UHGV virus genome: UHGV-0234540
Origin: a virus
Direction: 5' to 3' (one strand)
Length of the DNA stretch: 10,963 nt
The translations under genes were made by a program, and so were the position numbers. Below are positions 1,477-4,938 of the stretch, piece after piece; position 1 is the first letter of the stretch; each line of letters starts with the position of its first letter. The notes beneath the pieces are model-generated. The model did not search any database, was not told where the DNA came from, and saw only the letters and a program-made list of their open reading frames with translations.

Positions 1477-1641
1477 GTTGCTAACGAATCATCCGGTCAT
1501 TCATACGCCACCGGCGGCTACTTCGTGGGCGTCCTGCCTGTTCGTTATCTTTGATATAAAATCTAACTTAACTTAGTTATTATGGCAAGAGAAAACACCA
1601 AACTTTTCTTAGTTCGGTGCCTTAGTTAGAGAAGAGAGGTC

Positions 1642-2268
1642 TTAGAGTTCGTATTGAACTCCTTTGACTACACCAATGATAAGGCAATTACCATTGATAG
1701 GGATGTTGGGATACCGAGGATTTAATGGCACTAAAAACTTTTGAGGGCCATCGATGACTAATTTTTTTACTGTAGCTTCGTTTGTTCCATCAAGTCGAGC
1801 GATGACTATTTTTCCATGACGAGGTTCTGCATCTGGATCTACAATCACTGTTGCGCCTTCTGGTATTGTTGGGAGGCCATTAGGGTTAGTCATGGAGTCA
1901 CCTTTAACCTCTAATGCAAATGAGTTATCACCAATCTTTAATGATGTATCTACCCACTTGTCCACTTCACTAAACACTTCTGCTGCCCTGCACTCAGTAA
2001 ACTGCCCAGCCTGAACCCACGATATTACAGGAACTCTGCGCATGTTTGTGACGAGTTTGCCTTCAAACTCAGCACCATAAAGAATGTAATCTATTGACGT
2101 ATTGAAGAACTTCGCTAATTTCGAAAGTGCCTCCCCACCAGGGGTATTGATGTCTTTCTCCCAGTACCCCACAGCAACGTCGCTTACTCCACAAAATTTA
2201 CCCAATTCTTTCTGGGACGTTCTGGTAACTCTTCTCAGAGCTTTTATACGCTGACCAACCGTTTCCAT
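1642..2268 (-). CDS. cI: Prophage repressor, cI/LexA-like (N-terminal XRE-type HTH + C-terminal S24 peptidase autocleavage domain)
   Basis: 208-aa ORF. N-terminal HTH (QKELGKFCGVSDVAVGYWEKD). Probable Ala-Gly cleavage site in WVQAGQF. Catalytic Ser in the KGDSM motif and Lys in ATVKKLV, as in LexA and lambda cI. Divergent from a cro-like gene. Confidence 0.9.
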   Translation of the reverse strand: METVGQRIKALRRVTRTSQKELGKFCGVSDVAVGYWEKDINTPGGEALSKLAKFFNTSIDYILYGAEFEGKLVTNMRRVPVISWVQAGQFTECRAAEVFSEVDKWVDTSLKIGDNSFALEVKGDSMTNPNGLPTIPEGATVIVDPDAEPRHGKIVIARLDGTNEATVKKLVIDGPQKFLVPLNPRYPNIPINGNCLIIGVVKGVQYEL

Positions 2269-2290
2269 AGGAGCACCATTTCTTGAATTG

Positions 2291-2353
2291 CTAAGTAATC
2301 TTAGTTTTTATTGACCAAAGATAGATTTGTAATTAGCATCTAATAAAACTTAG
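2291..2353. promoter_or_regulatory. OR-like immunity control region: operator palindromes CTAAGTAATCTTAG (2291-2304) and CTAATAAAACTTAG (2340-2353); candidate PR -35 TTGACC (2311-2316) and -10 TAGCAT (2334-2339)
   Basis: Two 14-bp sites of the form CTAAG/T-N4-CTTAG in the 97-bp gap between divergent cI and cro. A -35/-10 pair with 17-bp spacing points toward cro. GGAGG sits 4 nt before the cro ATG. Confidence 0.45.
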
Positions 2354-2365
2354 TTTGGAGGGCGT

Positions 2366-2566
2366 ATGACAACTGACGATATCGAAAGCTACTTCGGCAG
2401 TATTGAGAAAGTTGCTGCTTTTTTCGGCATAACAACTGAAGCCGTTTATCAGTGGCGAAACCGTCCGGGCCAGTTAATTCCAAAAGGACGTGCAGCAGAA
2501 GCTGCATATAGAACTTGCGGACGGTTGCCATTTAAACCTGAGCTTTATGAAAAATCTAATGGATAA
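2366..2566 (+). CDS. cro: Cro-like transcriptional regulator (66 aa)
   Basis: Small ORF divergent from the repressor, with an SD. Motif FG...V...FGIT.EAVYQW matches the P22/434-type Cro pattern recalled from memory. Confidence 0.8.
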   Translation: MTTDDIESYFGSIEKVAAFFGITTEAVYQWRNRPGQLIPKGRAAEAAYRTCGRLPFKPELYEKSNG

Positions 2567-2591
2567 ATCGATTAACAGAAACCACAGAACG

Positions 2592-3161
2592 ATGAGGCTA
2601 ACCGTGGGTAAGCATCACTGGAAAGTAGAAAAACAGCCTGAGTGGTACGTGAAAGCTGTCAGAAAAACTATCGCGGCATTGCCGGGGGGTTACGCTGAAG
2701 CTGCTGACTGGCTGGATGTAACAGAGAACGCATTATTTAACCGCCTTCGTGCCGATGGCGATCAGATTTTCCCGCTGGGATGGGCAATGGTTTTACAGCG
2801 TGCTGCTGGCACTCACCACATTGCGGATGCAGTCGCACAGTCTGCTGGTGGGGTGTTTGTATCGCTTCCTGAAATTGAGGAAGTAGAGAACGCCGATATC
2901 AACCAACGCCTGCTGGAGGTCATTGAACAGATCGGCAGTTATTCAAAACAGATTCGTTCAGCAATTGAAGACGGGGTGGTGGAACCACACGAGCAGGCAG
3001 CAATTAACGACGAACTGTACCTGTCAATTTCGAAGCTGCAGGAGCATGCAGCACTGGTCTACAAAATCTTTTGCATTTCAGAAAGTAATGACGCCCGCGA
3101 GTGTGCAGCTCCGGGCGTCGTGGCGTCGATTGCTTCTAATTGTGGAGAAACTAACGCATGA
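2592..3161 (+). CDS. Phage regulatory protein, CII-like (phage 186 CII / CP76 family); start codon uncertain (candidates 2547, 2559, 2592, GTG 2604)
   Basis: ORF directly after cro. The segment [25 protein letters not shown] resembles the recalled CII-family motif. The longest ORF start at 2490 is a GTG only 2 nt after GG and overlaps cro by 77 nt, so an internal start is preferred. Confidence 0.55.
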
Positions 3162-3496
3162 ACAGTTTAACAACACCCTACCGTCGCTCGCAACTGATTG
3201 CGCTTCCTGTACCGGGTGGAAAAGCGAAGGTGGAGTATTGCTATGCAGTGAATGTACCAGGTGACAGGGAAATTGTAACCCACAGCTTTGCAGAGTGGGC
3301 TGTGGGTGATTTCAACCGGCAGAAGGAGACAGTCCTTTGCGACAAGTTAACCGCTGGTTCAAAGATCACTACGGAGTGCCCGTCAGAGTCATTCGTTGGG
3401 AACCGGAAACACAACGGGTTATCTACCTCCGCGAAGGTTATGAGCATGAATGCTTCAGTCCGCTCGAACAGTTTCGTCGTAAATTCAGGGAAATAG
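3158..3496 (+). CDS. Hypothetical protein; only the N-terminal ~60 codons look genuinely coding in this frame (possible frameshifted gene)
   Basis: ATG at 3158 overlaps the upstream stop (ATGA), with GGAGAAA upstream. Translation downstream of ~3335 turns S/N/T-rich and non-protein-like, while the overlapping frame is protein-like. Confidence 0.45.
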
Positions 3497-3516
3497 AGGT
3501 CGGTCATGAGCACTAA
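3337..3516 (+). CDS. Cryptic small ORF (59 codons, TTG start) or the true 3' portion of a frameshifted 3158 gene
   Basis: Frame 1 is open 3310-3516 and translates to a balanced sequence ([59 protein letters not shown]). Consensus AAGGAG (3323-3328) lies 8 nt upstream of TTG 3337. The stop at 3514-3516 overlaps the next gene's ATG at 3506. Not in the ORF track because it has no ATG. Confidence 0.4.
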
Positions 3517-4447
3517 ATTAACCGGCTATGTATGGGATGGTTGCGCTGCATCAGGCATGAAGTTATCCAGCGTGGCAATTATGGCCCGCCTGGCTGATTT
3601 CAGTAATGACGAAGGTGTGTGCTGGCCATCAATTGAAACCATTGCCCGTCAGATTGGCGCGGGGATGAGTACCGTCAGAACGGCTATCGCACGGCTGGAA
3701 GCAGAAGGCTGGTTAACGCGTAAGGCGCGTCGCCAGGGTAACCGCAATGCGTCGAATGTTTATCAGCTTAACGTTGCGAAGCTTCAGGCAGCGGCATTTT
3801 CTCAACTGTCAGATTCTGACCCGTCAAAATCTGACGCATCAAAATCTGACCCGTCAAAATTTGATGCGTCGAAATCTGGCAAAAAAGCGGGTTTTCACCC
3901 GTCAGAATCTGGCGGGGATCCGTCAGTAAAATCAAAACATGATCCGTCAGATAAAAAACCTTCTCGTCCGGACGCTTCGCAACCGGACACGCAGACGGCT
4001 GAACAGGATTTTTTAACTCGCCATCCTGATGCGGTTGTATTCAGCCCTAAAAAGCGCCAGTGGGGGACGCAGGATGATTTGACCTGCGCACAGTGGCTCT
4101 GGAAAAAAATCATCGCCCTGTACGAGCAGGCTGCCGAATGTGACGGCGAGGTGGTTCGTCCCAAAGAACCGAACTGGACAGCCTGGGCAAACGAAATTCG
4201 CCTGATGTGTGTGCAGGATGGTCGTACTCACAAACAAATCTGCGAGATGTACAGCCGCGTCAGCCGCGATCCGTTCTGGTGCCGTAACGTGCTCAGCCCG
4301 TCGAAGCTGCGGGAAAAATGGGATGAGCTTTCCCTGCGCTTATCGCCGTCCGTCAGCACGTACACCGAAAAACGCGAAGACCCGTACTTCAAATCCAGTT
4401 ACGACAACGTGGACTACAGCCAGATCCCGGCAGGATTCAGGGGGTGA
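3506..4447 (+). CDS. Replication initiation protein, lambda O-like (N-terminal HTH DNA-binding domain, repeat-encoded linker, C-terminal domain)
   Basis: 313-aa ORF at the O position after cII. N-terminal HTH-like segment (SIETIARQIGAGMSTVRTAIARLEAEGWL). Internal DNA iterons encode the DPSKSDASKSDPSKFDASKS repeat. SD GAGG 6 nt upstream. Confidence 0.7.
   Translation: MSTKLTGYVWDGCAASGMKLSSVAIMARLADFSNDEGVCWPSIETIARQIGAGMSTVRTAIARLEAEGWLTRKARRQGNRNASNVYQLNVAKLQAAAFSQLSDSDPSKSDASKSDPSKFDASKSGKKAGFHPSESGGDPSVKSKHDPSDKKPSRPDASQPDTQTAEQDFLTRHPDAVVFSPKKRQWGTQDDLTCAQWLWKKIIALYEQAAECDGEVVRPKEPNWTAWANEIRLMCVQDGRTHKQICEMYSRVSRDPFWCRNVLSPSKLREKWDELSLRLSPSVSTYTEKREDPYFKSSYDNVDYSQIPAGFRG
3813..3960. repeat. 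Candidate origin of replication: iterons inside the initiator gene
   Basis: Four tandem ~15-bp units (CCGTCAAAATCTGAC, GCATCAAAATCTGAC, CCGTCAAAATTTGAT, GCGTCGAAATCTGGC; 3821-3880) plus further CCGTCAG-core copies near 3898, 3919 and 3943, ending in an A-rich stretch (3945-3958). Two GATC sites lie in the distal copies. Same layout as ori-lambda inside gene O. Confidence 0.6.
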
Positions 4448-4449
4448 TC

Positions 4450-4938
4450 ATGAGTCTTTTGAATGACGTTCAGAAATTCATTGAAGCCCATCCGGGGTGT
4501 ACTTCCGGAGACATTGCGGATGCTTTTGCAGGTTACTCACGGCAGCGCGTACTGCAGTCAGCAAGCAAGTTACGTCAGAGTGGGCCTGTGGCTCACCGTT
4601 GTGAAGGGGATACACGCAGACATTTCCCGCGCCTGACTGAGAGAGCGCGGGAGCCGGAACCACAACCAGTTCGTGAAACCAGACCTGTGCGCAATTTCTA
4701 TGTCGGCACTAACGATCCCCGGGTGATTTTGTGCCTGACCCGCCAGGCTGAAGAACTGGAGTCAAGAGGCTTATTTCGTCGTGCTGCAACCGTGTGGATG
4801 GCGGCATTCCGTGAAAGCCACTCCCAGCCAGAACGAAACAATTTTCTGGCGCATCGTGAGCGGTGCTTACGGAAAAGCAGCAAGCGCGCTGCATCGGGTG
4901 AAGAGTGGTATCTGTCAGGGAATTACGTGGGGGCTTAA
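4450..4938 (+). CDS. PerC/Pch-like transcriptional regulator with N-terminal winged-helix-like domain
   Basis: The C-terminal segment ELESRGLFRRAATVWMAAFRES matches the PerC-family signature (..RGLWRRAA..W) recalled from memory. ATG 4450 is preferred over GTG 4444 (AGGGGG 6 nt upstream). Its stop overlaps the next start (TAATG). Confidence 0.5.
   Translation: MSLLNDVQKFIEAHPGCTSGDIADAFAGYSRQRVLQSASKLRQSGPVAHRCEGDTRRHFPRLTERAREPEPQPVRETRPVRNFYVGTNDPRVILCLTRQAEELESRGLFRRAATVWMAAFRESHSQPERNNFLAHRERCLRKSSKRAASGEEWYLSGNYVGA

Follow-up and report, generated by a model that had tools for sequence, protein, structure and literature searches.

What is encoded between ymfL and the replication-initiator gene in the early-right region of a lambdoid Escherichia coli prophage that resembles e14? 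The question is raised by a 10,963-nucleotide (nt) stretch of the virus genome UHGV-0234540 (the window; all positions refer to it unless another locus is named), in which two open reading frames (ORFs) occupy much of the same DNA: an ATG-started ORF at 3158-3496 and, in the -1 frame relative to it, a TTG-started ORF at 3337-3516. A first reading of the letters (the original prediction) had already seen the coding signal change frame at about this place, and had left the choice between one interrupted gene and two. The answer proposed here is that two real genes of the early-right operon, each with its own translation start, very probably share DNA in different reading frames: ymfM, known from the e14 prophage of E. 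coli K-12, and a small gene of the DUF4222 family. Comparison of sequences establishes both coding signals, both start contexts, a conserved layout, and an avoidance of stop codons in one frame; each of these is taken up below. The elements on which the argument turns are the following.

3144-3147, plus strand: GGAG, the Shine-Dalgarno sequence of ymfM, as read from the sequence; 10 nt before the ATG at 3158 and kept in all lineages
3158-3496, plus strand: ymfM ORF, 112 amino acids (aa), ATG start; orthologue of K-12 e14 b1148
3158-3336, plus strand: N-terminal part of ymfM, under purifying selection at the amino-acid level in the ymfM frame
3323-3328, plus strand: AAGGAG, the Shine-Dalgarno sequence of the DUF4222 gene, 8 nt before the TTG and present in 67/67 E. 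coli-type haplotypes
3337-3516, plus strand: DUF4222 gene, 59 codons, TTG start, -1 frame relative to ymfM
3338-3493, plus strand: dual-coding stretch, in which the ymfM frame is without amino-acid constraint and kept stop-free
3494-3499, plus strand: ymfM stop codon TAG (3494-3496) and Shine-Dalgarno sequence GAGG of the initiator gene (3496-3499), with one base common to both

What, individually, are the two ORFs? The first is the orthologue of the gene that NC_000913.3 labels "cell division inhibitor YmfM", an identity that the original prediction missed: over 3158-3516 the window and K-12 differ at only 4 of 359 nt, and the gene order ymfK-ymfT-ymfL-ymfM-initiator is the same. The ORF is matched over its full length by PHROG 1170 (E = 3e-68), and searches of Pfam and NCBIfam assign YmfM to no family. 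Of 107 distinct haplotypes, 99 have an ORF of 112 aa and six others one of 111-114 aa; the L211 clade, which was looked at separately, has 108 aa. A conserved N-terminal motif ends in ...W.VGD, and the second half (10 Ser and 5 Asn in 53 aa) is as rich in these residues as had been remarked at first sight. The TTG-started ORF scores 67.3 bits with the Pfam model PF13973 (DUF4222), whose cutoff is 27, and covers positions 3-52 of the 53 in that model (E = 8.6e-19); it also matches PHROG 1343 (E = 2e-34). In RefSeq E. coli genomes the Prokaryotic Genome Annotation Pipeline (PGAP) places a DUF4222 gene (WP_071789194.1) at exactly the coordinates of 3337-3516, and annotates nothing in the 175 nt that separate ymfL from the TTG (3162-3336). 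The same ORF is intact in K-12, with an identical protein product, and is missing from the K-12 reference annotation; in K-12 coordinates its TTG is at 1204001 and the ymfM ATG at 1203822. Among the annotations examined, curated K-12 thus shows ymfM alone, PGAP shows DUF4222 alone, and none shows both; the PHROGs divide the locus among three separate families of unknown function, one for the 112-aa ORF, one for its first 63 residues, and one for the 59-aa protein.

Which of the two frames does selection read? Homologous loci were taken from viral contigs and genomes, and every variant was classed as synonymous or non-synonymous in each frame; the neutral synonymous expectation is 0.25-0.29, and the binomial test was run against 0.30. 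Across 67 E. coli-type haplotypes the ymfM frame has 20 synonymous and 8 non-synonymous variants within 3158-3336 (p = 7e-6). Across the overlap the DUF4222 frame takes over, with 16 synonymous and 5 non-synonymous changes (p = 2e-5); the same variants, scored in the ymfM frame, come to 3 and 18 and include such radical replacements as G87E, G87V and C74Y. A Citrobacter-type clade (32 haplotypes) repeats the pattern in the overlap: 23/11 synonymous/non-synonymous in the DUF4222 frame versus 5/29 in the ymfM frame. Between genera, differences in the N-terminal part of ymfM fall preferentially on the third codon position (one comparison gives 10 at position 1, 9 at position 2 and 23 at position 3), and protein identity is higher for DUF4222 than for YmfM. 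The coding signal switches frame at 3337 far beyond chance, and the switch that the original prediction had perceived in a single sequence is borne out by the variant counts of the E. coli-type haplotypes and of the Citrobacter-type overlap. The second of its two explanations, a separate 59-codon gene starting at TTG 3337 with AAGGAG 8 nt upstream, is supported by the Pfam match to DUF4222, by the RefSeq coordinates, and by the ATG that other genera have at this position.

If the amino acids specified by the ymfM frame downstream of 3337 are not constrained, is that frame simply left over? The expected number of stop codons in it can be calculated by synonymous resampling, given the DUF4222 amino acids and the local codon usage. 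Over nine lineages, 0 stops are observed in the ymfM frame of the overlap and 19.5 are expected; the other alternative frame, serving as the control, has 34 observed and 32.6 expected. The ymfM frame stays open through the overlap in just 1-10% of the resampling trials for each lineage, and between lineages (one closely related pair excepted) degenerate codons differ synonymously in 33-70% of cases. The avoidance is evident in the choice of individual codons: where a dicodon runs the risk of a stop (Val, Leu or Ile before Asn, Ile or Lys), the first codon is exclusively GTT, GTC, CTT, CTC or ATC, varying between lineages; GTG and CTG, though they are the commonest codons, never occur there. 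The stop that does end the ymfM frame is, conversely, retained: it sits in a conserved GAA-ATA-GAG-G, in which a rare Ile codon of the DUF4222 frame, ATA, kept in all genera, creates the TAG, and variant haplotypes with GTAGAGG or TTAAAGG still have a stop (TAG or TAA) at the same position.

Distant DUF4222 genes that have no ymfM partner provide a further control. Those of Serratia BZS1, KpnBHU6, SaltyDalty and LMessi, which lie directly after another gene, have 3, 3, 1 and 1 stops in the corresponding frame (3.2, 2.7, 1.6 and 1.6 expected); the fifth, from Yersinia YeP1, has 0 (1.6 expected). Stops occur in four of these five partnerless genes at the expected rate, and the avoidance is therefore specific to loci with an overlapping partner. 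To judge by codon choice, then, the ymfM frame in the overlap is selected to stay open and not for its amino-acid sequence; the direction of the effect is clear. The original prediction had regarded the ATG-started ORF as protein-like in its first part only. That judgment stands for the N-terminal part, with its constraint on amino acids, and needs amending for the tail, which is not plain meaningless read-through inasmuch as its frame is kept open. With stop avoidance but no amino-acid constraint, this locus is a clean and testable case of selection that acts on translation across dual-coding DNA.

The layout is common to six genera, that of E. coli included. In Phytobacter, Atlantibacter, Raoultella and Citrobacter the ymfM-like ORF is 111-114 aa long and overlaps the ymfL stop as ATGA or GTGA; in the window this is the ATGA formed by the ymfM ATG and the ymfL TGA at 3159-3161. 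GGAGAAACTAACGCATGAAC is found in every clade examined, Atlantibacter having GTGA in place of ATGA. The DUF4222 start follows 179 nt downstream of the ymfM start (176 in Raoultella), always in the -1 frame. It is ATG in the four genera just named and TTG in the E. coli e14 type, and in the other genera a GGAG-type motif precedes the ATG by 8-10 nt. DUF4222 homologues of 59-70 aa from several genera have Met at the position of TTG 3337: what is found is a small stand-alone protein, whose translation starts where the domain begins. Within E. coli, the first 55 haplotypes examined are all 359 nt long with no indel, and CCTTTG, which includes the T-run at 3336-3338, is present in 67/67 E. coli-type haplotypes. 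The DUF4222 frame is closed by a TGA at 3307-3309, shortly upstream of the TTG, and the third frame at the locus is crowded with stops. The geometry of coupled genes is present throughout and conserved: ATGA at the ymfL/ymfM junction, a ymfM stop 9 nt before the initiator ATG, and an 11-nt overlap between DUF4222 and the initiator gene. The last of these corrects a detail of the original prediction, which had the stop of the frame-1 ORF overlapping the initiator ATG: the TAA is at 3514-3516 and the ATG at 3506-3508, so that the start of the initiator gene lies 11 nt inside the DUF4222 ORF.

Sequence searches of solved structures found no match for either protein. For DUF4222, AlphaFold2 produces a small fold of five strands and a helix with a predicted local distance difference test (pLDDT) score of 82, and the top Protein Data Bank neighbours that Foldseek returns for this model are barrels of the KOW/SH3/Tudor kind, which are weak matches (E >= 0.027, template-modelling score 0.6-0.65). 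The DUF4222 protein is accordingly predicted to be a small SH3/KOW-like beta-barrel.

How might such an arrangement work? Ribosomes leaving ymfL would restart at the ymfM ATG (3158) through the ATGA coupling, and the first ~60 ymfM codons would yield a conserved peptide. Other ribosomes would begin independently at TTG 3337, behind AAGGAG, and make the 59-aa DUF4222 protein. From 3337 on, the DNA is selected for the amino acids of DUF4222 and, in the ymfM frame, for openness alone; the Ser/Asn-rich tail of YmfM is therefore a by-product of DUF4222 codons. Ribosomes in the ymfM frame would cross the DUF4222 gene as far as the stop at 3494-3496, which adjoins the Shine-Dalgarno sequence of the initiator gene. 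One can think of this transit as delivering ribosomes into the replication gene (coupling), or as keeping Rho away (anti-polarity); alternatively, YmfM may need a tail, of any sequence. The conserved position of the ymfM stop, 9 nt before the initiator ATG, suggests translational coupling.

Several considerations count against this reading, or at least against parts of it. AlphaFold2 gives no usable fold for YmfM (pLDDT 40, from a shallow alignment of 18 sequences). Constraint on the N-terminal part of ymfM is weak in the Citrobacter-type clade, in which 8 synonymous changes stand beside 8 non-synonymous ones. The significance of the stop avoidance (nominal Poisson p = 3e-9) is overstated as the nine lineages are related. 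In phages of the SfV type, finally, the same frame, lacking a stop, runs into an Ash/Rha domain, and the reason for its openness may thus vary by lineage.

Might the two frames nevertheless be, or have been, one gene? Joined, they form a continuous sequence of 119 aa, and the original prediction had offered as its first explanation a single ~119-aa gene that had lost 1 nt in the T-run at 3336-3338, as a real pseudogene or through a homopolymer sequencing error. A search of 5.8 billion proteins with the restored sequence does return full-length matches, but these are singletons with differing junctions. The handful of "fused" proteins of 102-119 aa in public assemblies (P0001-P0005) change frame at a different point each, come from single Logan or ENA contigs, and look like sporadic indels or assembly errors; P0049 (JGI) is a gene-caller's GTG-start artefact on a contig with two indels. 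An interrupted gene is also hard to reconcile with indel-free haplotypes, with a CCTTTG that is universal in the E. coli type, with a two-frame layout conserved over six genera, and with a DUF4222 Pfam model that begins at the TTG, where homologues have Met behind a Shine-Dalgarno sequence; the explanation retains hardly any probability. Programmed -1 frameshifting, which would fuse the N-terminal part of YmfM to DUF4222, would account for the -1 relation of the two frames and for their conserved offset. It would require a place to slip, and no X XXY YYZ heptamer is to be read in the sequence between the TGA at 3307-3309 and 3340; the genera do not share the sequence of the junction stretch, the local RNA folds no more stably than shuffled sequence (z = -0.58), and for DUF4222 an independent start codon (ATG or TTG), with a Shine-Dalgarno sequence, is conserved. 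Frameshifting, too, is extremely improbable. Neither at the TTG nor at the ymfM stop did RNA folding yield anything beyond shuffled controls.

Or is only one of the two genes real? That is, in effect, what each of the existing annotations asserts. In the PGAP version DUF4222 alone is a gene and the ymfM ORF is an untranslated or meaningless occupant of the ymfL-DUF4222 spacer, as befits the unannotated 3162-3336, a protein with no Pfam or NCBIfam family and no AlphaFold2 fold, and a C-terminal half without amino-acid constraint. This is unlikely, if less so than the explanations just discussed: it leaves unexplained the preponderance of synonymous variants (20 to 8) in the ymfM frame of 3158-3336, the conservation of the ATGA coupling and of the ymfM Shine-Dalgarno sequence, an N-terminal motif that is conserved across genera, and the avoidance of stops in a frame whose own stop is conserved in position. 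The K-12 reference version, in which ymfM alone is a gene and the TTG-started ORF has arisen by chance, can point to NC_000913.3, where only ymfM is annotated, and to the filamentation that has been credited to ymfM. A chance ORF would not be expected to match a Pfam model with E = 8.6e-19 or to acquire a confident AlphaFold2 fold, nor to have a synonymous excess in its frame (16 to 5, and again 23 to 11), a protein identity between genera that exceeds that of YmfM, and relatives in other phages that have no ymfM partner; this version is as good as eliminated. Two overlapping genes thus remain the preferred interpretation.

How does this pair compare with overlapping or frame-switching genes in better-known systems? 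In the lambda Rz/Rz1 pair, as in other out-of-frame embedded phage gene pairs, a gene has its start codon and Shine-Dalgarno sequence within another gene that is read in a different frame. The embedding of DUF4222 in ymfM, out of frame and with its own start, is similar; the difference is that both sequences of Rz/Rz1 are functional, while in the ymfM/DUF4222 overlap one frame appears to be constrained in its amino acids and the other only in its avoidance of stops. Lambda G/GT and dnaX are genes with programmed -1 frameshifts; like ymfM/DUF4222 they have two frames in -1 relation within one transcription unit. Unlike them, the window has neither a slippery heptamer nor a conserved fusion product, and its second frame has an independent conserved start.

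Among prophages, the nearest comparison is K-12 e14 itself, which has a truncated and fused initiator gene downstream (oweE/ymfN); in the window this gene is full length. Shigella phage SfV orf37 ("immunity region", 279 aa) resembles ymfM in that it, too, starts by ATGA coupling behind a ymfL-like gene, and in orf37, as in E. coli Rha/Ash prophage genes, the same +1 frame reads through DUF4222 without stops. The difference is in what follows: the frame of SfV and of E. coli A33 is unstopped and continues into the Ash/Rha domain, whereas that of the window ends 9 nt before the initiator. Loci with such a run-on frame are L228 (1052-1888; SfV orf37), L221 (2553-3704; E. coli A33) and L220 (2434-3290; E. 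coli MDP9-27). Such loci are annotated in two ways: the GenBank entry for SfV has one 279-aa gene and no DUF4222, and PGAP has DUF4222 plus a shorter Rha/Ash gene, with an overlap of ~70 nt. The DUF4222 family as a whole is of unknown function, and many of its members, that of Serratia phage BZS1 for example, come directly after another gene and have no overlapping partner. DUF4222 homologues are also found in unannotated gaps just upstream of replication gene O, in YeP1 and in the Stx2c phages H95-H99; in Yersinia phage YeP1 (L224, 1156-1368) the +1 frame of the homologue is likewise open, for 89 aa.

The overlap has a consequence for a gene to which a function has been assigned. K-12 e14 ymfM has been proposed to be SfiC, the SOS-inducible division inhibitor (Ansari et al., bioRxiv 10.1101/2020.11.19.390815); in that work the ymfM ORF was cloned in pBAD24 and ymfM was deleted. 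The fragments recovered in earlier screens span ymfL to ymfN. Within the ymfM ORF lie 53 of the 59 DUF4222 codons, enough for the whole Pfam domain, together with the TTG and the AAGGAG before it; the published constructs therefore carried both genes, and a deletion of ymfM removes DUF4222 as well. It is conceivable, and we put it forward only tentatively, that SfiC filamentation comes wholly or partly from the embedded 59-aa DUF4222 protein, the 3' half of ymfM being a dual-coding stretch of which one frame is selected only for the unbroken passage of ribosomes into the replication-initiator gene. Since the experiments on ymfM as sfiC also carried a nearly whole DUF4222 domain, the assignment of sfiC is ambiguous between the two products. 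Each of the genes is known singly, ymfM in the K-12 reference and DUF4222 in PGAP-annotated genomes. The searchable literature yielded no paper that names DUF4222 together with ymfM or describes their overlap; a search for ymfM plus ribosome profiling likewise found none, and the papers on DUF4222 proved irrelevant. The conserved dual-coding arrangement, and the ambiguity about SfiC that results from it, appear to be undescribed so far.

Some variations on the layout deserve mention. The N-terminal part of ymfM comes in at least four divergent versions, two of them being MNSLTVNNRLPQLRGIPV... and MNSVNRFRPAKQFRCLPLVG... (L211-L219, 1501-1827; L222, 2553-2891); they have little in common beyond Q-x4-P-x2-G...Y, and all have the same overlap and the same stop position. 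In Phytobacter sp. V91 (L007, 1680-1859) DUF4222 has an in-frame stop (W7*) beside an unbroken ymfM-like ORF of 113 aa; in an Atlantibacter metagenome-assembled genome (L009, 1501-1728) a deletion takes the core of DUF4222 and leaves a ymfM-like ORF of 75 aa. Both look like resident prophages in which one partner is decaying. YmfM-like proteins of 68-100 aa were considered as genuine short forms and rejected, as they are rearrangement junctions or contig ends. In the window (3322-3339) the AAGGA of the DUF4222 Shine-Dalgarno sequence can pair with a UCCUU that immediately precedes and overlaps the TTG, to give a 6-base-pair hairpin in the minimum-free-energy fold; the pairing is not conserved in the genera with an ATG start, and the z of the fold is the -0.58 already given.

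The two genes that flank the pair are these.

2604-3161, plus strand: ymfL, gene of a CII-like regulator; PGAP coordinates transferred from the 99.3% identical locus L001
3506-4447, plus strand: replication-initiator gene (O-like, helix-turn-helix), from PHROG 391, Pfam HTH_36 and PGAP

The YmfL protein matches NCBIfam YmfL (E = 9e-51) and also Pfam Phage_CP76. Its start is placed differently by a mechanical ORF call (GTG 2490, giving 223 aa over 2490-3161) and by PGAP (2604, giving 185 aa). An in-frame difference of 6 nt in length between E. coli strains, considered as a property of the ymfM/DUF4222 region, was rejected as such because it maps to the 3' end of ymfL (about 3126-3140). The initiator protein matches PHROG 391 ("replication initiation O-like", E = 8e-136) as well as Pfam HTH_36.

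DNA related to the window is present in about half of the complete E. coli genomes (2771 of 5426), the best match among them being L001. Upstream of its immunity genes L001 has yfdP, yfdQ and yfdR, which are of the CPS-53 type and not of the e14 type, and the window is therefore taken to be part of a mosaic prophage and not of e14 itself. A consensus scan of window positions 1500-4600 detects 10 terminator-like hairpins (3.1 +/- 1.8 in shuffled sequence), six of which are on the minus strand, inside plus-strand genes.

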